A stretch of 64,000 nt of DNA from Candidatus Zixiibacteriota bacterium (lineage in GTDB: Bacteria > Zixibacteria > MSB-5A5 > GN15 > FEB-12): NCBI GenBank assembly GCA_036826635.1, contig DAISVY010000006.1, forward strand, positions 14,554 through 78,553, given 5' to 3'. Of this stretch, positions 15,588 to 34,800 are shown in pieces. The notes beneath the pieces were generated by a model, which was given only the letters and a program-made list of their open reading frames with translations, was not told the origin of the DNA and made no database searches. How positions within the stretch are numbered: the first letter of the stretch is position 1; each line of letters starts with the position of its first letter. The position numbers and the translations under genes were made by a program.

Positions 15588-16898
15588 TCAATAAGGATAG
15601 AAAACGTAAAACAGCAGCGATAACGCGGCCAGAATCCACATGCCCAGCGCCACCTCGCGTGCCCGCCCGGCGAATATCTTGGCCAGGGGGTAAGTGACAA
15701 ACCCGGCCGTGATGCCAACCCCCAGATTGAAACTGAAAGACATCATGACAATAGCACAAAAAGCCGGCAGGGCCTCCGTAAGGTCATGATATTCAAGCCG
15801 GGTCACCGGGCCGAGCATAAGCAAACCCACGATCATCAGAGCCGGACCGTAGGCACAGGCCGGTATGGCTGTCAGAAGCGGTGAGAAAAACAACGCCAGC
15901 AGAAAGAGCAACGCGGTAACTACCGCCGTCAGCCCGGATCGACCGCCCGCCTCAATCCCGGCCGCCGATTCAAGATAGATACCGGCCGTACTGGTTCCGA
16001 GCAGCGCCCCGACCACCGTAGCCGTGGAATCGCAGAGCATTGGTTTTTCTATCTCTGGAAGGTTCCCCTGTTCATCCAGCAGCCCCGCTTTATAGGACAA
16101 ACCCATGAGTGTGCCGGTGGTATCGACGAAATCCATGACAAGCACGGTGAGAATAACGGAGAAAAAGCCCCAGTGAAGAGCCCCGGCGATATCCAGTTCC
16201 AGAAAGATCGGTTTCAGGCTGGGAGGCATGCTCACCAATTGCGTCGGGAAGGCAGCCACCCCCGTAACAAAAGCGACCACCGACATGGAAAGAATACCGA
16301 TAAGCAAAGCACCCTTGAAACGGTGGATCATCAGAAAAGCCATAACGAAAAAACAGACGACGGCCAGAAAAATCGGCAGGCTGGTAAGATCACCCACGTG
16401 CACGGGGGCACCTTCCACCCCCAACTCGACGATACCGGTATGGTTAAGACCGATAAAAGTCAGATACAAACCGATCCCGACCGAGAAAGCGATCTTAAGT
16501 GAATTGGGGATAGCGTTGGCCAGCCAGCTTCTGATGCGAAAAGCACTGATAAGAGTGAAGAGCACGCCGCCGATAAACACCGCCCCCAAAGCGGTTTGCC
16601 AGGTGTAGCCCAGTACCTGCACAACCGTATAAGCGATAAATGCGTTTTCCCCCATGTAAGGCAGAATGGCAAAAGGCCGCCGGGCATAGATACCGAGCGC
16701 CATCGTTCCGAAAAACGCCGTCAATATGGTAGCAACCATCGAGGGACCAAACGGAATCCCCGCCGCTTCCAGAACTTTCGGATTCACGACGATGACGTAG
16801 GCGACGGTAGCGAAAGTCGTTACCCCGGCCAACACCTCGCGGCGGAAAGTCGTTTGCAGAGCTTCGAGCCTGAAATACCTGCTGATCCATCCGGACAT
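15588..16898 (-). CDS. NCS2-family purine permease (AzgA/PbuG-like adenine/guanine/hypoxanthine permease)
   Basis: The N-terminus reads FRLEALQTTFRREVLAGVTTFATVAYVIVVNP, as in AzgA-type permeases. I chose the start at 16898 (MSGWISRYF) because a GGAGGTG RBS lies 7 nt upstream. Confidence 0.85.
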   Translation of the reverse strand: MSGWISRYFRLEALQTTFRREVLAGVTTFATVAYVIVVNPKVLEAAGIPFGPSMVATILTAFFGTMALGIYARRPFAILPYMGENAFIAYTVVQVLGYTWQTALGAVFIGGVLFTLISAFRIRSWLANAIPNSLKIAFSVGIGLYLTFIGLNHTGIVELGVEGAPVHVGDLTSLPIFLAVVCFFVMAFLMIHRFKGALLIGILSMSVVAFVTGVAAFPTQLVSMPPSLKPIFLELDIAGALHWGFFSVILTVLVMDFVDTTGTLMGLSYKAGLLDEQGNLPEIEKPMLCDSTATVVGALLGTSTAGIYLESAAGIEAGGRSGLTAVVTALLFLLALFFSPLLTAIPACAYGPALMIVGLLMLGPVTRLEYHDLTEALPAFCAIVMMSFSFNLGVGITAGFVTYPLAKIFAGRAREVALGMWILAALSLLFYVFYPY

Positions 16899-17136
16899 CG
16901 TGTCACCTCCAATCACGGCCGGTATTGCATGCGCGCGCCGGTCATCCGAAAAGAAATTGCAAACAAAAAGAACGGCTGTCCAGAAGAAACTTAACCCCTT
17001 AACCCCATCATCCGTTTTGAACCGGGTATGCGTATCACCACAGCATTGAATATACTGATAGTCACTCTGCGCAAGAGCGCCACCGGATCAACGGTGAGAT
17101 TCGAATAACGACGCGGGGCGTGCCCGGGTAACACGT

Positions 17137-18459
17137 CTACCGTCTGATTGTCCCGGCCAGACTGCGTATGTCCTGCCCGCTCGGATCCTGATAAACGCGC
17201 AAATCAAAAAGCGGCACCACGGCCAGAATATGATCGAATATATCCGACTGGATAGCCTCGTAGTTGGCCCAGACCTGATCGTTACTGAAAACGTAAATCT
17301 CTATCGGCAAACCGTGCTCACCGGGCGCAAGCTGCCGCACGAGGAACGTCATCGACTGATGAATCTTGGGATGATGTCTCAGATACGCTTCCACGTACGC
17401 CCGGAAAGTCCCGATATTGGTCAGGTGCCGGCCGTTGACCAGTTCGGAAGTATCGACCTTGTGTTCCTCGTTGTATTTCGACAGCTCTTCTTTTTTGCGC
17501 TCGATATAGTCGGTGATATACTGATACTTCGAATATCGACGCAACATGTCCTCGTCGCAGAACCTGATCGTGTTGATATCGATATATACCGCCCGCTTGA
17601 TCCTCCGGCCGCCGGACTCGCTCATCCCTTTCCAGTTTTTGAATGAATCGGAAATCAGGGAATAGGTGGGAATGGTGCTTATCGTTTTATCCCAGTTCTG
17701 GACTTTGATGGTGTGCAGGGATATATCGACCACGTCACCATCGGCGCCGTACTTCGGCATCTCGATCCAGTCGCCCAGCCCGATCATGTTGTTGGTGGCA
17801 ATCTGAAAAGAGGCCACCAAACCCAGAATGGAATCTTTGAATACCAGTATCAGCACGGCGGTCAGTGCCCCCAGACCACTGAGCAACACGACAGGCGACT
17901 GACCGAGAATGACAGCAACCAGAAAAATTGCCAGCAGCACGAGTACGATTATCTGTACGATCTGCACATAGCCCTTGATGGGCCGGCTTTTGGCAATTTC
18001 CAGGGTACGGTAGACATCGATCACGGCGTTGCAAAAGGCGTTGAATACCATACCGCCCACGATGGCCATATAAACGATAGCCAGCCGTCGAATGAGGTCA
18101 TCGACACCGGGAAAGGCTCCGGCGAACCAATAGAAAATCAGGGCCGGGGCGATGTGCGCCGCCCGATGGAGAACCCGTCGTTCCAAAAGAGCGTCGTCCC
18201 ACTTGGTTTTGCTTCGGCGTATGATAAAAGACAGCCCCGCCAGAAAAACCCGTTTGGTCACGACATTCGCCAGCCAGGCCATTACAATGACAACCAGTGC
18301 AACAACCGCCCAGCTCACATATCCCAGAGCGGCCCCTTCCAAACCGTGACCGGCCAGCCAGTTTTTCACCAGATTAAACACGCTTACGTCCCCTGTTTCT
18401 TCATATTGGTCAACATCCGCGAATGACGGGAAAGTAAAACGCGGCCTTTGTCGGGACAA
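17137..18459 (-). CDS. Mechanosensitive ion channel (MscS family)
   Basis: 440 aa with N-terminal TM helices and an MscS beta-domain pattern (IGLGDWIEMPKYGADGDVVDISLHTIKVQNWDKTISTIPT). Confidence 0.85.
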   Translation of the reverse strand: MSRQRPRFTFPSFADVDQYEETGDVSVFNLVKNWLAGHGLEGAALGYVSWAVVALVVIVMAWLANVVTKRVFLAGLSFIIRRSKTKWDDALLERRVLHRAAHIAPALIFYWFAGAFPGVDDLIRRLAIVYMAIVGGMVFNAFCNAVIDVYRTLEIAKSRPIKGYVQIVQIIVLVLLAIFLVAVILGQSPVVLLSGLGALTAVLILVFKDSILGLVASFQIATNNMIGLGDWIEMPKYGADGDVVDISLHTIKVQNWDKTISTIPTYSLISDSFKNWKGMSESGGRRIKRAVYIDINTIRFCDEDMLRRYSKYQYITDYIERKKEELSKYNEEHKVDTSELVNGRHLTNIGTFRAYVEAYLRHHPKIHQSMTFLVRQLAPGEHGLPIEIYVFSNDQVWANYEAIQSDIFDHILAVVPLFDLRVYQDPSGQDIRSLAGTIRR

Positions 18460-18589: not shown

Positions 18590-20587
18590 ATGTGCGGAAT
18601 CGCCGGATTTTTCCAGATCGAAGGAAAAGCTGAACCCGACCGCGAGTTGATCGGTCGAATGGTGAACATAATCGAACACCGCGGCCCCGATGAGTACGGC
18701 GCGTATCTCGACGATAAGTGCGTTCTGGGACAGGCCCGTCTTTCCATCATCGACCTGGCCGGCGGCTCTCAGCCAATGAGCAACGAAGACAGCTCGATCT
18801 GGATAACGTTCAACGGCGAGATCTTCAACTACGTGGAACTTCGCCCGGAACTCGAAAAGCTGGGCCACCGTTTCAAGACCCGCTCCGATACCGAGGTAAT
18901 CATCCACGCCTACGAACAGTGGGGCAAGGACTGCCTGAACCGTTTCAATGGTCAGTTCGCCTTCGCCATTTACGACAGAAATAAGGAAACGCTTTTCATC
19001 TCCCGTGACCGTCTGGGTATCCGTCCGGTTTTCTACACCGTTCACAACGGTCGTTTCTATTTCGCCTCGGAGATCAAGTCGATCTTCTGCGATCCCGCCG
19101 TGCCGCGGCGTCTGGACTATCGCGGCCTGGATGAAACTTTCACCTGGTGGACCAGCGCCCCGCCGCGCTCGGCTTTCGAAAATATCAACGAACTCGAAGC
19201 CGGGACCTACGTGGAGATCAACAACGGCCGAATCAGCACCGGTCGTTACTGGAGCATGGTTTTCCCGGAAGAATACGATCACGAGCGCACCGCGGCATCA
19301 TGGGCGGAGGAACTTCGCGCCCTGCTGATAGATTCGGTGCGGCTGCGCCTTCGTGCCGACGTCCCGGTGGGGGCATATCTCTCGGGCGGGCTGGACTCGT
19401 CGGCCACCACGGCCCTTATCAAACATTTCACCGACACCCGGGTGGAGACTTTCTCGATTGCCTTCAGCGACGCCGCTTACGATGAGTCGGGCTATCAAAA
19501 CCAGATGGCCGAATACCTGGGGACCAATCATCACCGCGTGCTGTGCGACTATCGCGATATCGCCCAAAATTTCCCGGACGTCATCTGGCATACCGAACGA
19601 CCGATTGTCCGCACCGCCCCCACACCGCTATACATGCTCTCCCGCCTGGTACGAGAGAACAACTTCAAAGTCGTCCTGACCGGCGAAGGCTCCGACGAGA
19701 TTTTAGGCGGCTATGACATTTTCAAAGAGACACTGATCCGCGCCTTCTGGGCTAAGGACCCCGAGTCCAAATGGCGGCCGGCCCTTCTCAAGCGCCTCTA
19801 CCCCACGCTGCCGGTGACGGCTTCACGAGCCGGGGCCTATCTGGCGGCTTTTTACAAAACCGGTCTGAGCGAAACCGACAAGTATTACTTCTCGCACATG
19901 CCGCGCATGGCCACCGCGACCATGATAAAGAATTTCTACTCGTCCGAAACGAAAGAACGGCTGAGCGGTTACGATGCCCGCGAAGCCTACGGTCGTGAAC
20001 TGCCGTCCAACTTCGCCCACTGGCATCATTTGGCCCGGGCGCAGTTTATCGAAGCTCGTTCATTGCTGGCCGGATATATTCTCTCTTCGCAGGGCGACCG
20101 GGTCTCGGCCGCACATTCGGTGGAAGGACGCTTCCCGTTTTTGGATCATCGCGTGGCCGAGTTTGCCGCCACGGTTCCGCCCTGGCACAAGATCCTCGGA
20201 CTCAACGAAAAATTCATCCTCAAAAAAGCCATGCAGCCGGAACTGCCCAAAAACATCCTCGAACGTGTCAAGCAGCCCTACATGGCGCCCGACTCCAACA
20301 GCTTCGTGCAATCCGACGCCCCGGAATACGTGGGACGGATGCTATCCGAGGATATGGTATCACAAAGCGGCATCTTCAACCCGACGGCGGTGAAGAAACT
20401 TCATCAGAAATGCACTCGCATGGCCGACAAGCATCTTTCGTTCAAGGATAACATGTCTTTCGTGGCCATTCTCTCGACGCAACTGCTGATTGATCGTTAC
20501 ATCGACAATTTCCAACCGGCCGCACCGGCGGAGCGCAAAGATTTCACGGTCTGGGAAGACTGTTCTTCCTCGGCGGTGAAAGCGTAA
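18590..20587 (+). CDS. asnB: Asparagine synthase (glutamine-hydrolysing)
   Basis: 665 aa. It has the MCGIAGFF Ntn-amidotransferase start and the synthetase motif AYLSGGLDSS. Confidence 0.9.
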   Translation: MCGIAGFFQIEGKAEPDRELIGRMVNIIEHRGPDEYGAYLDDKCVLGQARLSIIDLAGGSQPMSNEDSSIWITFNGEIFNYVELRPELEKLGHRFKTRSDTEVIIHAYEQWGKDCLNRFNGQFAFAIYDRNKETLFISRDRLGIRPVFYTVHNGRFYFASEIKSIFCDPAVPRRLDYRGLDETFTWWTSAPPRSAFENINELEAGTYVEINNGRISTGRYWSMVFPEEYDHERTAASWAEELRALLIDSVRLRLRADVPVGAYLSGGLDSSATTALIKHFTDTRVETFSIAFSDAAYDESGYQNQMAEYLGTNHHRVLCDYRDIAQNFPDVIWHTERPIVRTAPTPLYMLSRLVRENNFKVVLTGEGSDEILGGYDIFKETLIRAFWAKDPESKWRPALLKRLYPTLPVTASRAGAYLAAFYKTGLSETDKYYFSHMPRMATATMIKNFYSSETKERLSGYDAREAYGRELPSNFAHWHHLARAQFIEARSLLAGYILSSQGDRVSAAHSVEGRFPFLDHRVAEFAATVPPWHKILGLNEKFILKKAMQPELPKNILERVKQPYMAPDSNSFVQSDAPEYVGRMLSEDMVSQSGIFNPTAVKKLHQKCTRMADKHLSFKDNMSFVAILSTQLLIDRYIDNFQPAAPAERKDFTVWEDCSSSAVKA

Positions 20588-20649
20588 TCTTTACGGTAAC
20601 AGAACGAACTTGAATGGGCGGGCGTTATTGGTACTGATCAACGCCCTCG
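20525..20649. repeat. Left copy of a composite inverted duplication: block A 20525-20588 (last 20 codons plus stop of asnB) and block B 20619-20649 (hairpin-forming 31-mer)
   Basis: A is the exact reverse complement of 28661-28724 (64/64). B is the exact reverse complement of 28732-28762 (31/31). B contains its own stem, GGGCGTT...AACGCCC. Confidence 0.95.
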
Positions 20650-20934
20650 ACCGGCGGGACGGGCCTCATGATGTCGGCGATGTGGTGAACCGGGAACCAG
20701 GACCAGGGTTCGTACCACTGAACCAATCTCGATGCGGAAAACTGCGCTGTCGGACTCGAGGGTGAAGAAGCCGGTGTTGCTTGATTTTGACTGATACGCC
20801 GCATCGCCGGAGATCAGCGTCACCTTGACGGTTTGCTCGACCTGATCGGTAATGAATGAAAAGACCCTGCCGGGATAGTAACAAAAGGGGAAAGTCCCGC
20901 AATGAGACATCGAACCGTGGTTTCCCGAGCTCAC
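20638..20934 (-). CDS. Hypothetical small protein (doubtful), last ORF of the SPFH operon
   Basis: 98-aa ORF whose ATG overlaps the upstream stop (ATGA at 20931-20934). Its middle part looks beta-rich and protein-like. The Arg/His/Pro-rich C-terminus runs into repeat block B and looks non-native. Confidence 0.3.
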   Translation of the reverse strand: MSSGNHGSMSHCGTFPFCYYPGRVFSFITDQVEQTVKVTLISGDAAYQSKSSNTGFFTLESDSAVFRIEIGSVVRTLVLVPGSPHRRHHEARPAGRGR

Positions 20935-22499
20935 TCCAGCAGTGTCTTCTCGACCGTTACGGCGTTGAGAACGGAATCGACGTAGAAGTAGTTTTCCAAA
21001 CGAAAAGGAACATAGAAAAGACCAACCTCGACCGGGGTTAGATCAAAACCATTAAAATCGACATCATTGCCAAGTTTCAAACACTCGCGGGCGACAATCA
21101 TAGTGGCCCGGGCCGTGGCCTCGGCCAGGCTTACCTGCACCGGCATGAAGCGCTCATCCATAACTTCCACCGCGTGCGTTTGCAGTTGTGATTTGGCCGC
21201 TGTCATTCGTTTGGCCAGACGATGAACAGCTTCGAAATTCCCCGAACGCAGGGCCGGAATCGCCAGGTAGTCGGTCGGGTCCAGTATGCCCAGCAAAGTT
21301 GCGAAACGGGCTGTCTGTTCCGGCTGGAAACGCAGCAGCCAAAACGGCACGAACTTCGACGAACGATTGTCGCTGCTGTCGGCCAGTTCGATTTGCGGCA
21401 GGCGGTAATCGGATTTGTCGAGCACCTGTAAACAATGGCAGTTGTCACAGATGTAAACGTATGATTGCCTGGCCGGAAGATCCGCCCCGCAGTTGGTGCA
21501 GCGATGAAACCCGATCTTCAGCTCACCGAAAGTTATCTCCTGCGGCGTATCGCTCGGCGTGTCGGTGTCGATGTCAAGCGACGAGAGATCTTCAACCGTC
21601 CCGTCGGCAAGGGCGTTGTCGACAAAACTTGCATGCTCGTGCGAAGGAGGCGTCAAACCGATGGAAACGCCGATCTTGCCGAGGTTCACCGAGATTGTCG
21701 TTGCGCGTTCCGGCGGTGTCGACTCCTCTTTTTCGGATGTATCCGCCGATCCCAGCACTCGTCCGGTGAGGCCGTCGAGAGCGTAGCGCTGGTATGTTGG
21801 CGTGTACGTCTCGGCCAAAATGTACGGGAAGTAAAGCAACGAAAAGACCGGATTGAACAACCACGTGATGTTGGCGCCGAACTCCGGTTCGTTGATATTC
21901 TCCACCGTGGCCAGAGCAAGATTGATTTTCTGCTGGACTGTTTCCCATGGTCGGACAATCGGCAGGGCATCGAAATCGTCCTCGACATTATCCTGCATGA
22001 AGGGGACGATTTTGATCGTCTCGGAACGCATGCCCAGTGAGTCCGGCACGCTGGGCATGGGCGAACCGGCCGCGACCGTCACGGAATAGGGTGTTATGCT
22101 TATTTTACTCCTGGGGTTCGTGGCCACGTGTTCTTCGCAGGCACCGTTGTAATACGTGAGATAAGAAGTTTTCTCCATCCGGTTGCGCAACTTGAGAAGA
22201 GTAGCATCGCACTTCCAATAGGGATAGTACAGTTTCTTGGTCATGAGCGACGAGCCACTCAACGGCTGGTTGTTCGTCTTGAGGTACCGATCCAGGTAGA
22301 AGCGCACCTGCATTTCGGGTATGCCGCTTCGGATCAGGTATGCCACGGGCGTGTCCGGGAGCAGCACGCGCAGGTTGGAACCGCAAAACTTGCAGGTGGT
22401 CACGAAGAAATCATCATCGAGCCGAACCTCGCCGCCGCAGCCGGGGCATCCCACCCCGATATAGAAACCGCTCTTAGTTTTCGTCGGTTGTATCACCAT
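20931..22499 (-). CDS. Hypothetical protein with two zinc-ribbon modules (internally duplicated architecture)
   Basis: 522 aa. The N-terminal half has CPGCGG...CKFCGS followed by YYPYWKC. The C-terminal half has CTNCGA...CDNCHC followed by FVPFWLLRF and [13 protein letters not shown]. It overlaps the upstream SPFH gene by 26 nt, which suggests translational coupling. Confidence 0.6.
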
Positions 22500-23607
22500 C
22501 GACCCTCTTGCCGCACTCGCCGCAGAACTTGGAGCCCGGAATCAGCTCGGCCGAGCAATGCGGACAACGCGGTTTGGAATCGAGCCGGTAACCGCAATAC
22601 ATGCAGAAATTGGCCTCGGTCGGCAGCGGCTGATTGCACGAAGGGCAGACGTTCTGAGCGACCATCTGATGTCCGCAGCGATAGCAATAGCGCGATTGTT
22701 CCGGTGTTTCGCTGTGACATTTGGGACAGGTGACGGTTGCCACCGGTTCGCGCTTGAGTTCGGTTTGCTCCGGCGAAAAAACTTTGTTGAGCATGCCGGG
22801 CATCATGACACCCACCCCGGCCGCCATGCCCATACCGGACCCGGCCGCCGCGGCCCCGCCGGGCGCACCCAGCCCCCTGGCCATTTCGAATTTCAGGAAC
22901 TTGTCCAGATCACCCACCGCTTCCAGCCCGGAACGCTGGTCGATCATTTTGGAAACTTCCTCCGGAGGTGTTATCGAAGAGATGAAGAAATCAACCAGTT
23001 CCAGACCATACTTGTCGAACTCAACTTCCACCGTCTTCTTGAATTTTCCGGCCAGTTCGGTGTAGATGGCGGGAAGGTCCAGCATGGTATCGAGATCTTC
23101 ACCCAGCAGGTCATTCATGCGGGCGATGATGACGTCGCGAAGGTAATCCTGAATCTCCGACGTGGTATAGCGCGCCTGACGGCCGACGATCGTATTCAGG
23201 AACAACACCGGCTCTTTGATACGCATGGTGAAAGCGCCGTGGCCGCGCAGTCTGATCATACCCAGCTTGCTGTCTTTGAATGTAACCGGGTGTTTGGTCC
23301 CCCATTTGAGATCGGTGAAGACTTTCAGGTTAACGAAATATACCTCCGCCCGGAACGGCGAGTTGAACCCGAAAGGAAAGGCCAGCAACCGGGTCAGGAT
23401 CGGGACGTTCATCGTCGAGAGCGTATGTCGTCCGGTGCTGAACGAATCGGCGGCGTGACCATCCTTGAAAAACATGGCCATCTGGCTGTCGCGGACGATC
23501 AATTGAGCACCCAGCTTGAAATCGGCCGAGCCCTCCTGCGGAATCCGGTATATCATCTCGTTACCGGTCGGGTCAAGCCATTCAATTACCTCAATAAGCA
23601 GCGCCAT
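22474..23607 (-). CDS. SPFH/Band-7 domain protein of the YdjI type (COG4260) with a C-terminal triple zinc ribbon
   Basis: 377 aa. The N-terminus [19 protein letters not shown]...[18 protein letters not shown]...[15 protein letters not shown] matches my recollection of B. subtilis YdjI. A Gly/Ala/Met-rich linker follows, and then CPKC..CYRCG, CPSC..CMYCG and CPHC..CGECG. Confidence 0.8.
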
Positions 23608-23772
23608 ATCGTCTCCTCAAATCATGGGGAAGTGCTTGTTATACTATACTTTCGTCAGATGCACGGATTACCTTACCGCCAATACCTCAGCCCCAACGGC
23701 GAAACCGCTTGCCAAGCCTTAAGCTCGAACGTAACATGATTTCCGAAACCAACTTCCACCGGAACTGTTATA

Positions 23773-24378
23773 GTGTCCAACGGATCGAAAAATACAAAGG
23801 CTGATACTATTAGCCCGGAGAAAGACCTGATAATGGAAAAAATATACCGAAACCTGCTCGAGGCGCTCGGCGAAGATACCGGTCGCGAAGGGCTCCTTTC
23901 CACTCCGAAACGCGCCGCCAGGGCAATGAAATTTCTTACCCAGGGTTACGAGCAGAACGTCGATGAAGTTATCAATAATGCTTACTTCCACGCCGATACC
24001 GACGACATAATAATGGTCAGGGACATCGAGCTCTATTCCCTGTGCGAACACCACCTCCTGCCGTTCATCGGTAAGTGTCATGTGGGCTATATACCGAAAG
24101 AGAAAATTCTCGGGTTGTCCAAAGTCGCCCGCGTGGTGGACGTATACGCCCGCCGTTTGCAAATTCAGGAACGTCTGACCCGACAGATCGCCGACGTTTT
24201 GATGACCCGTCTCGATGCGGCCGGGGTGGGCGTGGTGATCGAAGCGCAGCACCTCTGTATGATGATGCGGGGCGTGCAGAAACAGAACTCCGTCATGGTG
24301 ACTTCCTGTTTGCTCGGCACTTTCCGCAAGAACGCCGACACGCGCGCCGAATTCCTTAACCTTATAAAAAAGAAATAG
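23773..24378 (+). CDS. folE: GTP cyclohydrolase I
   Basis: The protein contains [30 protein letters not shown] and [13 protein letters not shown] motifs. An alternative start at ATG 23833 (MEKIYRNL), preceded by GGAGAAAG, is equally plausible. Confidence 0.9.
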
Positions 24379-24383
24379 CCCGC

Positions 24384-25604
24384 ATGTACCTCACGATCAG
24401 CAAGCGTTTCGACATGTCATCCGCGGCCCGGCTGTTTTGCCCCGACTGGGACGAGGATAAAAATCTGGCCGTGTACGGTCCGGGTTGTCGGGGTGAGCAT
24501 GGTCACGGGTACAATTTCGTCGCACGTTTCGTTTTCCACGGTCCGATTGACGAAAAAACCGGCATGATGCTCAACGTGCGGGTGATAAAGGAACGGGCCG
24601 GGAAGATTATCGATGGCCGGTACGATCACAAGTATCTCAATGTCGACACGCCGCCGTTTACCGATCTTGTCCCGACGCCCGAAAATCTGGCCGTGCAATT
24701 GCTCGCGGAGATAACGCCTTTGTTCGACGATCAACCGGCCCGCCCGGTTATCTGTCACTTTCAGGATTCACACAACAGCGCCGCCACCGCCTACACCGAC
24801 GGTCATGTGGATCGCAATTTCTGGCTGGATATGTCGGCGGCCCGACGGACTTTCTCACCGCACCTTTCGGACGAAGAGAACGAAGCTCTTTTCGGTATTG
24901 CCTCGGCGGCCAGCGGGCACGGTCATAACTACCGCCTGCGCGTTACGCTGAGCGGCCGGGCCGATCCTTCCAGCGGGCTGATAGTCCCCTACGAACAAAG
25001 CAGCCGTGCTTTGAAGATGATCCACGACGAGTTGGACCATAAGAACCTCAACACCGACGTGCCGGGTCTGAAAGGCCTGCCCATGACCACCGAGACCCTG
25101 ACTCGCTATATTGCCCAGCGCCTCGGCGGTGATATTCCGGTCAGTCGCGTTAAGCTTTATGAATTGCCTCATTTCTTCTCGGAGTACACGGTCGGGGGGA
25201 AATTTCTCATGGGCGTAACCGACTATTTCCACGCCGCTCACCGGCTGCATTCGCCGTATCTGAACGACGAAGAGAATTGCCAAGTGTACGGCATCTGCAA
25301 CAATCCCAACGGTCACGGTCACGAATACAAGTGCGAGGCAACTATCGGGGGAGAATACGACGAACGCAGCGGGACGCTTTATGATCTGGCCGAATTTCAA
25401 AACGCCATCAGACGGTCACTGGCCTTGTGGGACTATAAACACCTGGAACTGGACACCGACGATTTCACCGACACGCCGTCAACCGGCGAGAACATCATTA
25501 CCCGACTGTGGCCGCGGCTCGACGAACAACTTGACAACCGGCTGCACCGACTGCGCCTGTGGGAAACACCCAACAACCGTTTCGCGCTGCGACGCTCAAA
25601 ATAG
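24384..25604 (+). CDS. Triple-domain 6-pyruvoyl-tetrahydropterin synthase / QueD-family fusion
   Basis: 406 aa made of three consecutive PTPS-like modules of about 130 aa. Module 1 has CRGEHGHGY (Cx3HGH, QueD-like) and DHKYLN. Module 2 has SGHGHNY and DHKNLN. Module 3 has FHAAHRLH and the classical CNNPNGHGHEY signature. Confidence 0.85.
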   Translation: MYLTISKRFDMSSAARLFCPDWDEDKNLAVYGPGCRGEHGHGYNFVARFVFHGPIDEKTGMMLNVRVIKERAGKIIDGRYDHKYLNVDTPPFTDLVPTPENLAVQLLAEITPLFDDQPARPVICHFQDSHNSAATAYTDGHVDRNFWLDMSAARRTFSPHLSDEENEALFGIASAASGHGHNYRLRVTLSGRADPSSGLIVPYEQSSRALKMIHDELDHKNLNTDVPGLKGLPMTTETLTRYIAQRLGGDIPVSRVKLYELPHFFSEYTVGGKFLMGVTDYFHAAHRLHSPYLNDEENCQVYGICNNPNGHGHEYKCEATIGGEYDERSGTLYDLAEFQNAIRRSLALWDYKHLELDTDDFTDTPSTGENIITRLWPRLDEQLDNRLHRLRLWETPNNRFALRRSK

Positions 25605-25615
25605 GAAACCGCATT

Positions 25616-26308
25616 ATGGAACGCTGTCTTATCACCGGAGCCACCAGAGGTATGGGGCGCGCCATCGCTCTTCGGCTGGCCGGGCCGGACAAAGAACTGC
25701 TCCTGCACGGACGTAATCGGGAAGCGTTAGAGCAGGTCCGTGCCGAGGTAGAAAACGCCGGGGCCAAAGCCCGTGTATTGCTGTGCGATTTGAGCAATCC
25801 CGCCGAAATCGAAACGATGATTGACGCTATCGGTACCGAGCCGTTGCGGGCGATAATCAACAACGCCGGTATCGCCATTGTCAAACCGCTGGGTGAATTG
25901 TCGCTGCGGGAATGGCAGGATTCGTTCGCGGTGAATGTCACGGCCCCGTTCCTCTTGATTCAGAAGCTCAGTGCCCTGATGGAAAAAGGCGCCGGTGTGG
26001 TTAATATCCTCTCGGTGGCGGCTCGTACCGGTTTCCCCGGCTGGAGCAGCTATTGTATGAGTAAGTTCGCTCTGGAAGGTTTCACGCGGGCGGTGCGCGA
26101 GGAATTGCGCCCCCGGGGTATTCGTGTTATCAATATCTACCCATCGGCCACCAATACCGATCTGTGGAATGAAATCGAAGGTGACTGGCCGCGCGATAAG
26201 ATGCTCTCGCCCGATGAAGTCGCCGAAGCTGTCGTCTATGCTCTCACTCGTCCCGACTCGGTGCTGGTAGAGGACATCTCCCTCGGCAATCTCTCCGGCA
26301 CGCTGTAG
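25616..26308 (+). CDS. Short-chain dehydrogenase/reductase (possible sepiapterin/pterin reductase role by context)
   Basis: It has the TGATRGMGRAIA Rossmann motif, NNAG, and the catalytic YCMSK (YxxxK). I chose the start at 25616 (MERCLITG), which follows an AGGAA RBS directly after the PTPS stop. Confidence 0.85.
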   Translation: MERCLITGATRGMGRAIALRLAGPDKELLLHGRNREALEQVRAEVENAGAKARVLLCDLSNPAEIETMIDAIGTEPLRAIINNAGIAIVKPLGELSLREWQDSFAVNVTAPFLLIQKLSALMEKGAGVVNILSVAARTGFPGWSSYCMSKFALEGFTRAVREELRPRGIRVINIYPSATNTDLWNEIEGDWPRDKMLSPDEVAEAVVYALTRPDSVLVEDISLGNLSGTL

Positions 26309-26338
26309 GCCGGCCCTGCCGGGTTATCTTGTCCCCTT

Positions 26339-26992
26339 CTATATTTCTTCTTCGAGCGAGGTACCAAGATCCTTCTGGATCCATGCACTATTAGCGTATT
26401 CCAAAATCACATGGTAATTAGTGGATTTGATAATTCCTCGGCCTATCTGAAAAAGTGTCACAATGACTCTGATCCTATCACCACTGTTCTCATCATCCCA
26501 CACGGTCTCTAAATATGTGTCTTTCGAAAGCGGGGCTCCGAAATCGGTTGGCGTTACTTGGTTGCGAGTAGGTTCTCCATATTTCTTCTTGAGAACATCT
26601 GTTAACTTTTGATAATACGACCACATCTTGTTGATAGTCTCAGACTCGTCACCAGTAATTATGCGAAAATGGTATTGAAAAACTGAAAGCGCACCATCTT
26701 CATCGAAAACAGCAAGGATTTCATCTGCTTCTTCGCCCAATAGTTTGACTTTTTCAATCTCGGCATAACGATAGCCTTCAGGAAGTTCGTGAACCGGGTA
26801 GAACGTGTGCGTCTTGTGATCCTTGCTCAGTTTCTTGATCTTGGCTTTTTCTCCCTTAGACGGGTTTTCTAACTTGTTTCTTACTTCATCATACGTCATT
26901 CCCCAACTTAGCCCTTTTGGAGGATTGAATGCCAGAGTGTTTGAAGCTAGCAGCATGCATGCTAATGTCAGAAATATTCGTTTCATAAGCAC
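26339..26992 (-). CDS. Hypothetical secreted protein (AT-richer islet)
   Basis: 217 aa with an N-terminal signal peptide (MLMKRIFLTLACMLLASNTLA). I recognised no family. The codon usage is visibly AT-richer than in neighbouring genes. Confidence 0.55.
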   Translation of the reverse strand: MLMKRIFLTLACMLLASNTLAFNPPKGLSWGMTYDEVRNKLENPSKGEKAKIKKLSKDHKTHTFYPVHELPEGYRYAEIEKVKLLGEEADEILAVFDEDGALSVFQYHFRIITGDESETINKMWSYYQKLTDVLKKKYGEPTRNQVTPTDFGAPLSKDTYLETVWDDENSGDRIRVIVTLFQIGRGIIKSTNYHVILEYANSAWIQKDLGTSLEEEI

Positions 26993-27270
26993 TCCCGGAA
27001 AAAGCTCTGTTTATTATTATTGATTGAATCAAAGTTAACAACAATGGATATACATGTCAAGTATTACGCTTACGATATGGAGCAATCACACGGCAGAGTC
27101 CCTTGATGATCCTTCTCTCCGTCAACGCTAATATAGCGGTTTTAGCTTGATTTTTTCTGAAACTGGGCTTAAGATGAGAAATAGACCAACAAAGGTAAGA
27201 TCATTTTTTAACAAAAGACATCATTTCGTTGACAGTCAACCTGGACACCAGTGGATGAAAGGAGCACGCC

Positions 27271-27909
27271 ATGAAAAACATTGACAATAGAGGCTTGTAT
27301 CGAAAAGCTGCCTGCTGGGAAGTGCTTTGCATACTCAGTCTGGTAGTTGGCTTTCTTCCAATGAGTTCGTTTGCTCAGGTTGGTGGGAGCGAACCTCTCA
27401 TCAAGTATGCTCAAAGGCAGGCGGGGAGAACTTTTGACGAAAAGTGGTCTTGGTCTTTTGGCGATGCGTTGATGTTACTCAAAGAGAATAACGGAATTAA
27501 AACCGGGGCGATTCTTCCGATCAGGATCAGCACATGGAGTTTCCCCATTACATTAGTGCGGCTCAACTCGGACGATTCTCAGAACGTCCGTATTGAGCCA
27601 ATTCTGTCTGTGGGACTTGGATATGTTTGGATCAGTGGATTGAGCACCATAGACGCGAAAAATGAAAGCATAATAATCTATCCCAGTAGCACTATAGGAA
27701 TTGCAGCCAGTTTAGGAGTCATTAACAAAGTTGATGGCTCCGCAGGAACTGAAGGAAGTCTAACTCTAACCGGTGTCATTGGACTCCGCTCAATGTTAAT
27801 TTCTTTTGGTTACGATTTCTTGTCCGAATCCCCGGTAGTTGGAATGGGCTTCTGTGTTAATCTCTTTACGCTGTCAAAAAACGCCTACCGAATCTCTGGA
27901 ATCGATTGA
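27271..27909 (+). CDS. Hypothetical exported/possibly beta-barrel protein (AT-richer islet)
   Basis: 212 aa. It has a hydrophobic signal-like segment ending SSFAQ and alternating beta-strand-like segments. I recognised no family. Confidence 0.5.
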   Translation: MKNIDNRGLYRKAACWEVLCILSLVVGFLPMSSFAQVGGSEPLIKYAQRQAGRTFDEKWSWSFGDALMLLKENNGIKTGAILPIRISTWSFPITLVRLNSDDSQNVRIEPILSVGLGYVWISGLSTIDAKNESIIIYPSSTIGIAASLGVINKVDGSAGTEGSLTLTGVIGLRSMLISFGYDFLSESPVVGMGFCVNLFTLSKNAYRISGID

Positions 27910-27989
27910 CTCTTAGCTAAGCTTCCCTGTCAAGCAAGCTTAGAACAGAACCCCTCGGCGGTTTTGCTCTACGTCAACTCTGTTGGTAA

Positions 27990-28649
27990 TCATTTCTTCG
28001 TGTTGTACGTTACACCCCAACTCTTCTCACCTGGTCGCTCAATGTATTTGACATTATCCGCGATGTCCCTGAGGACATTCTTGACTTCCTCTTCTGTGGG
28101 GAAGTTCTTCACGATCTCAAATGAGCGACCGTCCGGCAAAGAGCGTTGCTCTAAAGTATTGCCGTCAGGATCTTGCCTCCTGGCCTGCCCTTCATAAGGC
28201 AGTTGATCGACAAACAGCACAAGAGCTCCGGGCGCGAGCCTGCTGTGCAACACGGAGAGAAACGGCCGAATCTGCGCTTTTGGTATGTGAGACCACCACC
28301 AGATCCCCAGGGCAGCGCTGAACCCCGTTCGAACCCCGTCGAGGGTGTATGCGTCGGTTGTCTCGAATTGGACGTTGGACAGATGCTTGCACCTGTCCTT
28401 TGCAATCGAGACGAGCGATGAGTTAATGTCCGTTGCGAGCACTGAGTTTGCTACTTCGCCGATGACTTGTGTCCAGTACCCTGACCCGCAAGCAATCTCA
28501 AGCACATCATGTCCACTGAACATCTCTCGGTACCGTGCCTTGATAGGGACACGAAGCTGTTCTGCCTCCGGATCGGTGTAGCCTGCCGTCTCGTCGTAAA
28601 CAAGGGCTCGGGCTGCATAGTATTCGGTTATATTGTTAACCAATGACAT
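27990..28649 (-). CDS. Class I SAM-dependent methyltransferase
   Basis: 219 aa with the motif I sequence [12 protein letters not shown] and an acidic residue after beta-2 (LATDIN). The substrate is unknown. Confidence 0.8.
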
Positions 28650-28660
28650 GATTCAATAAA

Positions 28661-28762
28661 ATTACGCTTTCACCGCCGAGGAAGAACAGTCTTCCCAGAC
28701 CGTGAAATCTTTGCGCTCCGCCGGCCCTGGCCGAGGGCGTTGATCAGTACCAATAACGCCCG
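28661..28762. repeat. Right copy of the composite inverted duplication: A' 28661-28724 and B' 28732-28762
   Basis: These are exact reverse complements of 20525-20588 and 20619-20649. The A-B spacer is 7 nt here versus 30 nt on the left. A' ends 11 nt upstream of the methyltransferase ATG, and B' lies 18 nt downstream of the stop of the 28781..31171 gene. Confidence 0.95.
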
Positions 28763-28780: not shown

Positions 28781-31171
28781 TTACAACTCAAAGCCCAGTC
28801 TTACACTGAAGTCCTGTGTGTCGTAATCCGAAAGCTGCCAGGTGAAATACAACGCGAAATTGAGCGGTGAGATAAACGGCGTAAGATTCCCCAAACCGAA
28901 TCCGACTTCACGATAGGCTTTCGACGCCGTGTTGATAAACTCGTCGCCCGGATGCACTGCGTGGTTATTGAAATCCGTCCAGAAAACACCGGCATAGACA
29001 CTTAACCAAAGCGGGATGTCCCTGATCAACGGCAACCCGCTGGCCGTGAACAGTCGCCGCCGGAAATTATGGAACAGCCCCAGAGCCAAAACGCGACTGC
29101 CGCCGAAATTCTTGGTGTCAAGACTGCTGAAACCACGGGCGTCGAAGAAATAACCATCGCCGAAATCGACCGAGAAATACCGCTGGGGCGGAAGGTCCCC
29201 GTCGGAACCGCCCGCAAACACGTTGAGCGCCGTCACGCCCAGCCCGAGACTTCGCTGCCGCCGATAGAACCGCACCCAATAGCGGCGGAAGTCGAAATCA
29301 TTATCGATAAAATCGGGCGAGGCATATTCGACGGCCGCCTCCAAACGCGAGTACTGAACCTGGTCGATCCGCTCATCACGGCCCTTGTTTCGAAATAACT
29401 GACGCGAATCAAAGACAAACGACAGCGTCAACGAACGCAATGTCCCTTCGGTTACGGACGGATTGTCGCGAATATCGTCTTCATCACCGAAAACGCTGAA
29501 ATCGGTCCCAAACGGCAGCGAACGGTGACGCAAATCGCTGTAGGTCAACCCGAGGCGGGTGAAATCGATCAATTTCGTTTGCACGAACGCCTGCGCACCT
29601 TTGGTGAGGTAATAATCGAAAGGATCTTCCCCGACCCACAGAGCAAAGAACGACGGGTTATAGTCCCGGGCCGAGACAATAGTCGGACGGTGCGTCACGC
29701 GATTGAAATAATCAAAACCGACGTCCAGCTTCCTGCCCTCGTGCAGACGATACGTCAGGCCGTACTGATGTTCCCCGCGTTTGATTTCAAAAGCATAACC
29801 CGTTTTGATCCGGAAATTCATCCTGTCGACCAGGCGGTCCAAATCCAGCCCCAACCCGAGGTAAGGACCTTCAACACGATTGAATCTGAAAAAGTCCTTC
29901 TCCCCGGCCGTAGCCAGATACATAGCGGCGGCCAGTCCGGTCAGCATCTTTCGACCCAACGACCGGGGAGCGCCGGTCACCGAATCGATCCGCGCGTAAC
30001 CGTTTATCTCAACGGGCGTCAGCGGAATAGTCGGCCGCTCATACCATCGCAGACTGTCGAAATCATCGGCCTTGTCGTCGACCTCAATGGCATACTCCCC
30101 GAATGTTCCCCGGGGATGTCCGGTATCAAAATGGAAATCGTGCAGCAGGGCCGTGTGCGATACACGCAGGCGGTCGGGCACTCCCGGAATAGGCATTTCT
30201 ATATTCACATCACAAGAGAATCGAATCTCTATCGGCATCCAGTACTCGTTGTCGAACTGCGCGAAGCGCTGAGCGTAGCGAGCGTCGGAAACGAGAGGAA
30301 GATCGACACCGCGGCTGAAAGTCACGTCCACTTCCACCACGTCATAGGTGCTGTCGGCGATACTGATCACTCCCGCAAACAACGGATCTTCCGGATTTTT
30401 CGGTTCCACCTCCAGCCGAAACACGGTCAGCGAGTCGATATACACGGTGTCCAGCAGGTAATAATTGTAATGATCCAGCGCATCGTCGGCCGTGGGCGTA
30501 ACCAGCGAATAGCGCTGTATATTGATTCGATTGGCATTGAAATTAAGAATCTCCCCCACCGTCACCAGATTACCCTCGGCCGGTATATTGGCCGACTGCC
30601 GGCGCGACGTTATGACCTCTTTATACTTGTCCGGCTGTTCCCAGCAGGCCGTGGTCTGTGACTCGGTAATAAGGAACACCTTGCCCGAATCGGCCGGGGA
30701 AAGATCGGTAACCAGCAGTTTAACATACGCTTCATAGCGATAGTCGTGAATGGCCGCGAGGATATCCTCCTTGCGCTTGATCGCCTCTACTATGATGCGC
30801 TGGGCGGGATCGTAGGCACGCGACGAAACCGTTATCCCCTGCACCTCCACCATGGCCGGAACCAGAAAGACGTCGCGATGCACCAGGGAGTCACTTCCGG
30901 CTATCGTCAGACGTTCGGAATAAAAAGCGATGTGACTGAATTTGAGACGATCTTCCCCGGGCCCCAGGCGCAGGCGATACTCACCGTCGGCGTTAGCCAA
31001 AGCCGACCGCCCGGTACCCTCGATACGAACCGAAGCAAAAGGAATCGGCGCCCCGCTCTCGGCATTGAAAACCGTCCCCTCGACGACAATCCGCTCCTGC
31101 GCGACAGCAGTAGTTACCATCGATTGAAAAACGAACAGCAGAATAATGATGGCTACGCTTTGTCTGTGCAC
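28781..31171 (-). CDS. CarboxypepD_reg-like domain protein of the DUF5686 type (outer-membrane associated)
   Basis: 796 aa. It has a signal peptide, then EGTVFNAESGAPIPFASVRIEGTGRSALANADGEYRL (carboxypeptidase-regulatory-like fold), and a long beta-rich C-terminal region ending in an aromatic-rich barrel-like tail. Confidence 0.7.
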   Translation of the reverse strand: MHRQSVAIIILLFVFQSMVTTAVAQERIVVEGTVFNAESGAPIPFASVRIEGTGRSALANADGEYRLRLGPGEDRLKFSHIAFYSERLTIAGSDSLVHRDVFLVPAMVEVQGITVSSRAYDPAQRIIVEAIKRKEDILAAIHDYRYEAYVKLLVTDLSPADSGKVFLITESQTTACWEQPDKYKEVITSRRQSANIPAEGNLVTVGEILNFNANRINIQRYSLVTPTADDALDHYNYYLLDTVYIDSLTVFRLEVEPKNPEDPLFAGVISIADSTYDVVEVDVTFSRGVDLPLVSDARYAQRFAQFDNEYWMPIEIRFSCDVNIEMPIPGVPDRLRVSHTALLHDFHFDTGHPRGTFGEYAIEVDDKADDFDSLRWYERPTIPLTPVEINGYARIDSVTGAPRSLGRKMLTGLAAAMYLATAGEKDFFRFNRVEGPYLGLGLDLDRLVDRMNFRIKTGYAFEIKRGEHQYGLTYRLHEGRKLDVGFDYFNRVTHRPTIVSARDYNPSFFALWVGEDPFDYYLTKGAQAFVQTKLIDFTRLGLTYSDLRHRSLPFGTDFSVFGDEDDIRDNPSVTEGTLRSLTLSFVFDSRQLFRNKGRDERIDQVQYSRLEAAVEYASPDFIDNDFDFRRYWVRFYRRQRSLGLGVTALNVFAGGSDGDLPPQRYFSVDFGDGYFFDARGFSSLDTKNFGGSRVLALGLFHNFRRRLFTASGLPLIRDIPLWLSVYAGVFWTDFNNHAVHPGDEFINTASKAYREVGFGLGNLTPFISPLNFALYFTWQLSDYDTQDFSVRLGFEL

Positions 31172-31893: not shown

Positions 31894-34800
31894 TTGAAAG
31901 TTCAGAGATACTTTACCCGCGAAGGCGAGTCTCCCTATGCCCGGCTAAATTTTGCCCGGCGATCTTCAGAGATAAAGAACCCCGACGGCTCGGTAGTTTT
32001 CAGACTTGATAATATAGAGGTTCCTGAAGCCTGGTCGCAGGTAGCGGTAGATATTCTGGCTCAGAAGTATTTCCGCAAAGCGGGCGTGCCGCAGGTTGAT
32101 GCCCAGGGCAACCCGGCGAGAGACGACGAAGGCAAGCCGAAACTCGGCGGTGAAACGGATGCCCGCCAGGTTTTCCATCGTTTGTCCGACTGCTGGCGTC
32201 ACTGGGGTGAGAAATACGGCTATTTTGACAGCCGCGAAGACGCCAAGAACTTCTACGACGAGTTGGCCTACATGCTGGCCGCGCAGATCGCCGCCCCCAA
32301 CTCCCCTCAGTGGTTCAACACCGGTCTGTATAATTCCTACGGCATTTCCGGCGTCCCGCAGGGTCATTATTTCGTCGACCCTTCGACTCACACCCTCACC
32401 GAAGCCAAAAACGCCTATGAACACCCGCAGCCGCATGCCTGCTTTATCCAGTCGGTCAGCGATGATCTGGTCAACGAGGGCGGAATTATGGACCTGTGGG
32501 TACGCGAGGCCCGGCTGTTCAAGTACGGCTCGGGTACCGGCAGCAACTTCTCCGCCGTGCGCGGCGCCGGTGAGTCACTCTCGGGTGGGGGAAAATCGTC
32601 GGGACTGATGTCTTTCCTGCGGATCGGCGACCGTGCCGCCGGGGCTATCAAGTCGGGCGGGACAACCCGTCGGGCGGCCAAAATGGTCACCCTGAATCTG
32701 GATCATCCGGATATTATCGAATTCATCGACTGGAAAGTCATCGAGGAACAAAAAGTCGCCGCACTGGTCGCCGGCTCCAGGGTCATCCGCCAGCAACTTC
32801 GGGACATTTGCGAAGCCGTCGTGGTGTCGACCGAAGGTGACCGGAAAACCGTCGAGGTCGATCCCCGCAAAAACAAAAAGCTCGAACAGACAATAAGAAC
32901 CGCGCGACGGAACGCCGTCCCCGATACATATATCCGCAAAGTGCTGGAACTCGCCGGTCAGGGCGTTACCGATATCGACTTTATCGAACTGAATACGAAC
33001 TGGGACAGCGAAGCTTACCTTACGGTGGCCGGACAGAACTCCAACAACTCGGTGCGTATCCCCAACCTCTTTTTCGAAAAATTGAAAGCCGGTGAAGACT
33101 GGCCGTTGCACTATCGCAGCGCGAACGAAACACCCGACCCCATTCCGGCCGCTCAATTGTGGGACAAAATCTGTTATGCCGCCTGGGCCTGCGCCGATCC
33201 CGGGGTACAGTTCGACAGCACCATTAACGAATGGCATACCTGCCCCGAAGACGGGCGGATCAATGCCTCGAATCCCTGCTCGGAATACATGTTTCTCGAC
33301 GACACGGCCTGCAATCTGGCTTCGCTGAACCTGAGCAAGTTCTTCGGCGAAAACAGCGATTTCGACATCGAAGGTTACCGCCACGCTGTCCGCCTGTGGA
33401 CGATAGTCCTGGAGATTTCCGTCCTCATGGCGTCGTTCCCGTCGCGTCAGATTGCCCAGAAAAGCTACGAGTTTCGGACTCTCGGCCTGGGGTTCGCCAA
33501 TATCGGTTCCGTCCTGATGCAATTGGGCATTCCTTATGATTCCCCTCGCGGCTATGCCTGGTGTGGAGCGCTGGCGGCCCTTCTGACCGGGCAGGCCTAT
33601 ATGACCTCGGCCGAAATGGCCAAAGAGCAGGGACCTTTTCCCGGCTACTATCGCAACCGCGATCACATGCTGCGGGTGATGCGCAACCATCGCCGGGCCG
33701 CTCACAATGCGGACAGGTCGGAATACGAAGGACTCACGGTCAAGCCGACCGGAATCAACCCCAACTATCTGCCCGAGGAACTGGTGCAAACGGTCCGTTC
33801 GGTCTGGGATGAAGCGCTGTCTCTGGGCGAGGTATACGGATTCCGCAACGCTCAGACGACGGTGGTGGCCCCTACCGGGACAATCGGTTTGCTGATGGAT
33901 TGCGACACGACAGGAATCGAACCCGACTTCGCCCTGGTGAAATTCAAAAAGCTGGCCGGCGGCGGCTACTTTAAGATCATCAACAATTCGGTACCGTTGG
34001 CCCTGACTCACCTGGGTTACTCGGACGATGAAGTTGCTGACATCATCAAATACGCCACCGGGCACAAGACTCTCAAGGAATGCCCGTACGTCAATCATGA
34101 ATCGCTGCGAGCCAAGGGATTCGGCGACGAAGAGTTGCAAAAGATCGAGGCCTCGCTGAACGAGGTATTCGACATCTCCTTCGCTTTCAACAAACACATT
34201 CTGGGTGACGAATTCATTCATGATACGCTGGGGTTCACGGCCGAAGCAGTCGATGCCTGGGATTTCAACCTGTTGAAAGAACTGGGCTTTACCCGCGGGC
34301 AGATCGAGGCGGCCAACGAATACTGCTGCGGTACGATGACTCTCGAGGACGCCCCCCATATCAAGGATCATCACCTTCCCATTTTCGACTGCGCCAATCG
34401 GTGCGGCCGCAAGGGCAAGCGATTCATCAGCTACGAGGCACATATCCGCATGATGGCTGCGGCTCAGCCGTTCATTTCCGGCGCCATTTCAAAAACCATC
34501 AATATGCCGTCGGAAGCAACCATCGACGACGTCAAGCGAGCTTACATGCTGGCCTGGGAATCGATGAACAAAGCGGTGGCGTTGTATCGCGACGGGTCCA
34601 AACTCTCGCAGCCGTTGACGGCTTCCCTGCTGGGCGAAGATGACGAAGAAGAACCGCAGGAGATGACGGTCGAAGCCGCCGCCCGCAAGATGAGCGAGAA
34701 GCTCATCTATCGCTACATTGCCAAGCGCCGCAAACTGCCGCATCGCCGGGCCGGTTACACCCAGAAGGCTATGGTGGCCGGACACAAACTTTATATTCGC

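Follow-up and report, generated by a model that had tools for sequence, protein, structure and literature searches.

The 64,000-nucleotide (nt) stretch analysed here, hereafter the window, comes from a metagenome-assembled genome (MAG) of a Candidatus Zixiibacteriota bacterium (GCA_036826635.1) and lies within a 219,651-nt NCBI contig (DAISVY010000006.1, positions 14,554 to 78,553). All coordinates are given relative to the window. The feature under study is an 8-kb segment located between asnB and a gene for an outer-membrane-type protein, and it is bracketed by two pairs of inverted duplications, here called blocks A and B and their reverse complements A' and B'. The gene on the left flank, asnB (18590-20587, plus strand), encodes a glutamine-hydrolysing asparagine synthetase of 665 amino acids, which matches the Pfam families Asn_synthase and GATase_6/7 and has the N-terminus MCGIAG. 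The gene on the right flank (28781-31171, minus strand) encodes a protein of 796 amino acids that was assigned with Pfam to the DUF5686/CarboxypepD_reg type.

Block A (20525-20588, plus strand) is 64 nt long and consists of the last 20 codons of asnB, the stop codon and one additional nucleotide. It is the exact reverse complement of block A' (28661-28724, minus strand), which ends 11 nt upstream of the ATG (28649) of a methyltransferase gene. Block B (20619-20649, plus strand) is 31 nt long and is the exact reverse complement of block B' (28732-28762, minus strand), located 18 nt past the stop codon of the DUF5686 gene (28781-28783). Both pairs were identified by reading the sequence and with a repeat finder, and they extend to 67 nt and 34 nt, respectively, if one mismatch is accepted in each. 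The copies are separated by 8.1 kb. The repeat finder detected no other exact repeats in the window, nor any of comparable length, and dinucleotide shuffles give an expectation of zero matches for A or B. A spacer of 30 nt (20589-20618) separates A from B, and a spacer of 7 nt (28725-28731, CCCTGGC on the plus strand) separates A' from B'. Read on the asnB strand, the order is asnB, A, 30 nt and B; read on the DUF5686 strand, it is DUF5686, 18 nt, B, 7 nt, A, 11 nt and the methyltransferase gene. The order on the plus strand is A, B ... A', B', which corresponds to an interleaved pattern of the type a b' ... a' b and not to one A-B unit that was copied in the inverted orientation. There are two staggered and interleaved repeat pairs, in contrast to the single pair of crossover sites of an inverton.

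Each of the two blocks contains a hairpin. The hairpin in B has the stem GGGCGTT/AACGCCC and a loop of 13 nt. Block A carries an interrupted hairpin of about 40 nt (approximately 20542-20581), which is the stronger of the two, with a DNA fold z-score of -4.5 (20540-20588), compared to -2.5 for B. The nucleotides of the final asnB codons (SSSAVK) are complementary, though imperfectly and in reverse, to those of the conserved DFTVWED codons shortly before them (20540-20583), so that the coding sequence of the gene closes with a hairpin. Even so, the encoded tail is homologous to the tails of the relatives. The initial annotation of the locus, which was made from the sequence alone, does not mention the hairpin in A but is accurate to the base in the following respects: the perfect inverted duplications and their coordinates, the unequal spacers, the distances to the methyltransferase ATG and to the DUF5686 stop codon, the stem of the B hairpin, and the statement that the right end is not a simple inverted copy of a contiguous A-B unit.

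The sequence immediately around the blocks provides some additional details. The octamer ACCGGCGG is located directly 3' of the left B copy (20650-20657, plus strand), and the same octamer is found at the 5' edge of A (20524-20531). Since it occurs 13 times in the window when both strands are counted, we estimate the chance of finding it at both edges at about 1e-3. The copy that follows the left B may represent microhomology, or it may belong to a 39-nt tract that was taken from the junction on the right. In the orientation of the DUF5686 gene, the 7-nt spacer and its surroundings read GGCCAG GGCCGG, suggestive of tandem slippage by 6 nt. The 30-nt spacer may be the native 3' flank of asnB or junction filler: no source of at least 11 nt was found for it elsewhere in the window, and its similarity to the 3' flank of the DUF5686 gene is not significant (p about 0.05). 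Restriction-type cutting at R^CCGGY sites (ACCGGC at 20524 and 20650) was considered and rejected, since the predicted cohesive-end joint, CTCGA joined to CCGGCGGAGC, differs from the observed right junction. An intrinsic terminator in B was rejected as well: no T-run follows the hairpin, it was not called by the terminator scan, and the RNA fold is unremarkable. No tRNA and no Rfam family was found at the junctions.

Block A can be traced to asnB. Homologues of AsnB at 70-81% identity align to its C-terminus, and the tail encoded by A, ...FTVWEDCSSSAVKA, resembles the tails of the relatives, for example ...FSVWHDCSTLAAK. Likewise, the encoded C-terminus ...RKDFTVWEDCSSSAVKA is homologous to ...REAFSVWHDCSTLAAK and ...RTAFKVWLDQSSAAKVL in the relatives. 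Because the homology of these C-termini extends through the last residues, block A is native to asnB, and A' is therefore the copy, displaced from the 3' end of asnB and inverted. Block B' is presumably the DUF5686 gene's own 3' hairpin, because it occupies the position where such a hairpin is expected. The intergenic sequence around these genes is not conserved in the relatives. The initial annotation had cautioned that B might be a dispersed element similar to the repetitive extragenic palindromic (REP) elements. The searches made gave no support for this: within the 64-kb window, there are no matches to B beyond the two copies, even at up to 3 mismatches, and the exact pattern has no matches in the GTDB species representatives and none in the IMG/VR viral contigs. 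The exact A pattern gave no matches in the JGI metagenomes. Within the scope of these searches, the duplicated blocks consist of unique flank sequence, A being native to asnB and B being restricted to its two copies.

Eight credible genes are located between the repeats, in addition to a doubtful open reading frame (ORF), rather than the ten genes counted previously. The conserved core of the segment consists of two genes on the minus strand, one for a zinc-ribbon protein here called p522 (20931-22499), which was recognised with Pfam and belongs to a family named only from Zixibacteria/GN15, and one for an SPFH/Band-7 zinc-ribbon protein (22474-23607; Pfam). They are followed on the plus strand by genes for GTP cyclohydrolase I (GTPCH, 23833-24378), a triple PTPS protein (24384-25604) and a short-chain dehydrogenase (SDR, 25559-26308), all assigned with Pfam. 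An AT-richer islet (26339-27909; GC 0.41-0.45 versus 0.55) then carries two ORFs of 217 and 212 amino acids (26339-26992, minus strand; 27271-27909, plus strand) that match no family in Pfam, NCBIfam or PADLOC. The islet is absent from the relatives that were fetched and is probably foreign DNA. The last gene before A' (27990-28649, minus strand) encodes a class I S-adenosylmethionine-dependent methyltransferase of 219 amino acids (Pfam Methyltransf_25). Neither the islet nor the segment as a whole showed a match indicative of defence, phage or plasmid origin. A 177-amino-acid ORF (23719-24252) was discarded as spurious, as it is antisense to the GTP cyclohydrolase I gene.

The doubtful ORF, orf98 (20638-20934, minus strand), has its stop codon in the loop of the B hairpin. 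It has no Pfam, NCBIfam or PADLOC family and was not called as a gene on the corresponding contig of the Logan assembly described below, and only five weak matches were obtained among 1.84 billion representatives, with alignments that stop at residues 79-84 of 98. The suggestion that its C-terminus looks non-native, which would be consistent with a breakpoint, receives weak support from the positions where these alignments end, but orf98 is itself a doubtful gene.

The closest relatives with an informative gene order are Zixibacteria with an AsnB that is approximately 80% identical, and none above 81% was found. In L092 (ENA ERZ27252236), the amino acid identities are 81% for AsnB, 87% for the SPFH protein, 80% for a permease, 76% for GTPCH, 65% for PTPS, 64% for SDR and 53% for p522. 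Its genes are arranged as SDR, PTPS and GTPCH in the leftward direction; DUF4349, SPFH and p522 in the rightward direction; two RND genes and asnB leftward; and mscS, TPR and the permease rightward. In L095 (JGI 3300063138; AsnB 80%, p522 46%), mscS is oriented leftward and asnB rightward, followed by Fic, p522 and SPFH in the leftward direction. The pattern common to the two is mscS leftward, asnB rightward, a set of variable genes, and p522 and SPFH leftward, and it is collinear with the window, where the genes for a permease (15588-16916, minus strand) and mscS (17137-18459, minus strand) precede asnB. The DUF5686 side is represented by L085, in which RNR is oriented leftward and DUF5686, SPFH and p522 are oriented rightward and directly adjacent. 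This is the same relative orientation as in the window, where a class II RNR gene (31894-35568, plus strand) follows DUF5686. The pterin cluster of GTPCH, PTPS and SDR is located beside SPFH-p522 in both L092 and L094, with 64-78% amino acid identity; in the latter, a 3.84-Mb genome, it has been kept near these two genes. Only the 1.7-kb islet and the methyltransferase gene are lineage-specific within the segment. The AsnB relatives in GTDB, at 70% identity, share no neighbours with the window and are uninformative.

The segment is thus not inverted relative to L092, L095 and L085. Because asnB is convergent with p522-SPFH in L092 and L095, the present orientation is the conserved one, and since the relatives are collinear with the window, the flipped state with the methyltransferase gene next to asnB is not ancestral. 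The initial annotation had described that flipped state, with a direct A...A repeat resembling an integration scar, and had proposed to ask whether the methyltransferase gene follows asnB in related genomes. It was never found downstream of asnB in these relatives, and the methyltransferase homologues at 79-87% identity occur in unrelated contexts that adjoin neither asnB nor DUF5686 and are by themselves uninformative as to what preceded the event. Together with the displaced nature of A' and the lack of any integrase or recombinase gene in the window, these comparisons speak against the flipped state as the original.

The same comparisons bear on two other explanations of the repeats. In the first, the ancestor would have carried asnB next to the methyltransferase gene and p522 convergent with DUF5686, and a single recent staggered-break inversion would have produced the present order. 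Such an event accounts exactly for the interleaved order, as confirmed with a script based on the published model (PMC1885836), and the perfect identity of both repeat pairs fits a recent event. We nevertheless regard a one-way inversion as very improbable, as L092 and L095 (for the part next to asnB) and L085 (for the part next to DUF5686) have the same orientation as the window, and the methyltransferase homologues and asnB are never neighbours. In the second, a genomic island or mobile element would have integrated into the 3' end of asnB and later been inverted. The duplication of a gene's 3' end across a segment that includes an AT-richer islet is what suggests this, but the repeats are inverted and not direct, there is no integrase, tRNA or similarity to phages or plasmids, and p522, SPFH and the pterin genes form a conserved synteny beside asnB in the relatives. 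An island is therefore extremely improbable.

The gap between the convergent asnB and p522 genes is occupied differently in each genome: by a pair of RND efflux genes in L092 (11591-15868), by a Fic gene in L095 (12057-13205) and by the doubtful orf98 in the window (20588-20931). The variability of this slot suggests that this end of the segment is rearrangement-prone across the lineage. In yet another relative, L096 (ctg96280l, approximately 12050-12150), about four tandem copies of a unit of approximately 18 nt, CAATCAAGTCACAGCTTC, are found directly after the asnB stop codon.

To place the repeats at the level of the reads, we used Logan, in which each sequencing run is assembled independently with k=31. 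Proteins identical to those of the window occur in Logan contigs of run SRR2043635 (PRJNA284867, HKU), a paired-end HiSeq 2000 dataset from an anaerobic digester metagenome that was sequenced in Hong Kong. One contig, SRR2043635_1153 (L001, 8071 nt), corresponds to positions 20620-28690 of the window with 100% identity and no mismatch; it begins one base into B and ends exactly 30 nt (k-1) into A'. Another contig (L083), which carries the DUF5686 gene, ends 48 nt past the stop codon, which equals the 18 nt to B' plus 30 nt of B'. Since the unitigs stop at B and A', the graph branches there, and the reads must hold two continuations each of A and B. The initial annotation had listed an assembly chimera among its options, but an artefact that invented the repeats is unlikely because contigs assembled separately from that run's reads terminate precisely within B and A'.

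The existence of the blocks does not settle their order. With a script and our own analysis of the graph, the repeat pieces can be threaded in three ways, namely as in the window, with a flip between A and A', or with a flip between B and B', and the k=31 contigs cannot discriminate between the orientations of the segment. Of these, the assembled order alone is in agreement with the synteny of the relatives. A fourth reading of the graph, with a 135-nt tandem or circular unit (A-30-B-7), is biologically implausible and unnecessary. It is conceivable that the blocks are real and that the assembler took a wrong path through the repeat graph, or that two strains, each with one extra copy, were merged. 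The three Eulerian orders available from the same pieces are consistent with this, as is the origin of the sequence as a MAG contig built from HiSeq 2000 reads, which are assumed to be roughly 100 nt long and would span a 64-nt repeat only narrowly. On the other side, the 30-nt and 7-nt linkers are unique and cannot be invented by an assembler, the ends of the Logan contigs coincide with the positions expected of real branches, a read is much longer than B (31-34 nt), and only the assembled order fits the synteny of the relatives. We consider an assembly problem of this kind unlikely.

The repeats, once present, may have consequences for the stability of the segment. RecA-dependent chromosomal inversions occur between inverted repeats such as rrn operons and insertion sequence (IS) copies. 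As in those inversions, perfect inverted repeats flank a chromosomal segment here, and both RecA and RecO are encoded in the window, but the repeats of 64 and 31-34 bp are neither IS nor rrn copies and are near the minimum for efficient RecA recombination. Judged by the minimal homology lengths of RecA, homologous recombination could plausibly use the 64-bp pair and, marginally, the 31-34-bp pair, and could thereby flip the segment among three isomers. A flip at A would place the methyltransferase gene 12 nt downstream of asnB, and a flip at B would place it behind asnB-A-30-B-7-A. According to the script, none of the isomers disrupts asnB. Once the segment is flipped at one repeat pair, the copies of the other pair have the same orientation, and recombination between them could remove the extra copies.

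A phase-variable switch would make functional use of these isomers. The repeats would then be crossover sites, and each flip would change whether the methyltransferase gene and its neighbours receive readthrough from asnB or from DUF5686, as well as the termination of asnB. The perfect inverted repeats that flank the segment, the intact asnB in all isomers and the nearby RecA and RecO genes are compatible with this, and an even number of inversions is expected of a segment that flips back and forth. Programmed invertons such as those of the Hin, Fim and Bacteroides invertible promoter systems likewise consist of DNA bracketed by inverted repeats whose orientation could alter co-transcription (PMC11892184, PMC11602134). 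They differ from the present case, in which there is no recombinase gene, the pairs are interleaved instead of forming a simple left and right inverted repeat (IRL...IRR), one repeat is the coding sequence of a housekeeping gene, and the conserved cargo of 8 kb with housekeeping-type genes contrasts with the mostly promoter-sized known invertons. None of the 49 ORFs in the 64-kb window encodes a recombinase, integrase or transposase, and no invertase or tyrosine or serine recombinase is among them, although a recombinase encoded elsewhere could act in trans. The earlier remark that no recombinase is visible in the segment thus holds for the whole window. Taken together, a dedicated switch seems quite improbable.

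A more speculative variant is a self-made, three-state switch that works without a recombinase of its own. The hairpin-prone ends of the two convergent genes would break or stall repeatedly, the 8-kb block would flip back and forth, and the inverted duplicates that result would allow general recombination to toggle the methyltransferase gene and its neighbours between readthrough from asnB and from DUF5686. We find this very doubtful; if true, it would be a route by which bacteria build new invertible segments from scratch.

The geometry of the repeats points to a passive origin. The net state of the locus is the conserved gene arrangement with an inverted copy of B inserted 30 nt after the asnB stop codon and an inverted copy of A inserted 7 nt after the DUF5686 hairpin, and each end of the segment thus bears its own block along with a copy of the block from the opposite end. 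An interleaved order of this type is the outcome of staggered breaks at both ends of a segment if the breaks are filled in and the segment is religated in the reverse orientation. In a script, a staggered-break inversion of a repeat-free flipped state (asnB-A-11 nt-methyltransferase ... orf98-B'-DUF5686) yields the window minus the 30-nt and 7-nt spacers. Our preferred interpretation, to which we assign a probability of roughly 0.6, is that A/A' and B/B' arose passively, as the scar of illegitimate recombination that was associated with hairpins and involved the two ends of an ordinary chromosomal stretch of 8 kb. The segment itself is most likely neither a mobile element nor a dedicated switch. 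Among the three options in the initial annotation, a rearrangement scar is therefore the best supported, in an altered form, while a recent one-way inversion from a flipped ancestor is not supported.

In outline, the segment would have been inverted by one or more non-homologous events with breaks beside both hairpins, and its original orientation would later have been restored, through either another event of this type or recombination of the RecA type at the new repeats. A return of this kind would leave two inverted copies behind. We envisage three routes. In route (a), a clean inversion would be followed by a double-staggered re-inversion, that is, two illegitimate events that reuse the breakpoints beside the hairpins. 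This route would require a 30-nt filler, for which no match of at least 11 nt was found in the window, and the right end would have been joined through CCGGCGG microhomology and later altered by a slip of 6 nt (GGCCAG GGCCGG). In route (b), the segment would have been inverted on two occasions. Each inversion would have had staggered breaks at only one end and would have been undone by homologous recombination at the repeat that it had created. No filler would be needed here, and the 39 nt on the left that comprise B, 1 nt and CCGGCGG would have been copied from the right junction once A' was present. In route (c), the tracts would have been inserted without any lasting inversion, by inverted template switches while replication was stalled or break-induced, or during repair. 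A change of template to the opposite strand at the segment's other end, once or twice, would be nearly equivalent to a flip and return, and the left 39-nt tract (B, 1 nt and CCGGCGG) would again have been copied from a right junction that already contained A'. All three routes are passive, involve breaks or switches beside hairpin-forming sequence and lead to the same end structure. They are not firmly ranked, and the probability given above applies to the family as a whole.

Several observations weigh against a passive scar. A flip and return would presuppose either two rare events at the same few nucleotides or a 30-nt filler that has no source in the window, and up to four switches over a distance of 8 kb would be necessary for the template-switch route. 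The junction microhomology is weak (0-2 nt) with the exception of the octamer, and the flank similarity past the repeat edges is not significant. With a value of -0.008, the GC skew of the segment falls among those found elsewhere in the window, and it does not polarise an inversion. No genome was found that is close enough (AsnB identity above 81%) to show the state before the event, and the path is thus deduced from geometry alone. Finally, the order of the pieces depends on a single MAG assembly from one paired-end HiSeq 2000 run, whose reads, at an assumed length of roughly 100 nt, would span the longer repeat only narrowly.

The closest parallel to the scar is found in Drosophila, where a staggered-break model has been proposed for 17 of 29 inversions (Ranz et al. 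2007, PLoS Biol; PMC1885836). The breakpoint duplications described there resemble the present ones in that two single-copy, non-repetitive blocks are each present as an inverted duplicate in the order a b' ... a' b, and in that the joins show little or no homology and no transposable element. In the Drosophila cases, however, the outgroup carries the intervening segment in the opposite orientation, whereas it is collinear here, which calls for an extra reversal or a non-inverting route. The blocks here are also tiny (64 and 31 nt), each contains a hairpin, and the host is a bacterium. A second parallel is provided by templated inverted insertions, which arise by break-induced replication that is mediated by microhomology (MMBIR) or by fold-back and quasi-palindrome switching (PMC8421209, PMC11724301, PMC7202029). 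Like the blocks studied here, these are short inverted tracts derived from nearby sequence at hairpin-forming sites, and a microhomology of 7-8 nt may be involved. They have been described mostly in eukaryotes, or over short ranges (<100 bp) in E. coli, whereas donor and acceptor are 8 kb apart in the window, the transfer is reciprocal at both ends, and most of the joints have 0-2 nt of microhomology.

If the interpretation as a passive scar is correct, the locus represents a clean bacterial case of the interleaved inverted-duplication signature that is best known from Drosophila breakpoints, here with 100% identical copies and hairpins in both duplicated blocks. Such repeats need not mark a standing inversion, but may persist on a segment that is in the conserved orientation, whether it has returned to it or never left it. 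This calls for caution in proposing a recent inversion or an inverton from inverted repeats alone. It would also mean that IS elements are not required for the formation of short perfect inverted repeats, from which RecA-driven flipping could later develop. The scar has no evident functional or applied importance.

Some additional features of the genes in and around the segment deserve mention. In the window and in L085, L092, L094 and L095, the gene for the SPFH/Band-7 protein with C-terminal zinc ribbons is always followed by a gene for a protein of 470-527 amino acids with an N-terminal zinc ribbon and no known family. The two genes overlap at their start and stop codons, and where the source organism is named, it belongs to the Zixibacteria/GN15. 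One homologue, P0196 (843 amino acids), is a fusion of the SPFH and p522-type proteins. The triple PTPS protein is 406 amino acids long and contains three PTPS repeats. The GTPCH-PTPS-SDR cluster resembles a tetrahydrobiopterin-type pathway, and in L092 it is located near a gene for an aromatic amino acid hydroxylase (Biopterin_H). In L084 (797-1024), a gene for a methyltransferase with 87% identity is followed by a second methyltransferase-like gene with an ATGA overlap, at the place where the window has the AT-rich islet. Outside the segment, an ORF of 311 amino acids (50302-51237) matches a LIM domain and the DA1-like peptidase family, both of which are typically eukaryotic and unusual in a bacterial chromosome.

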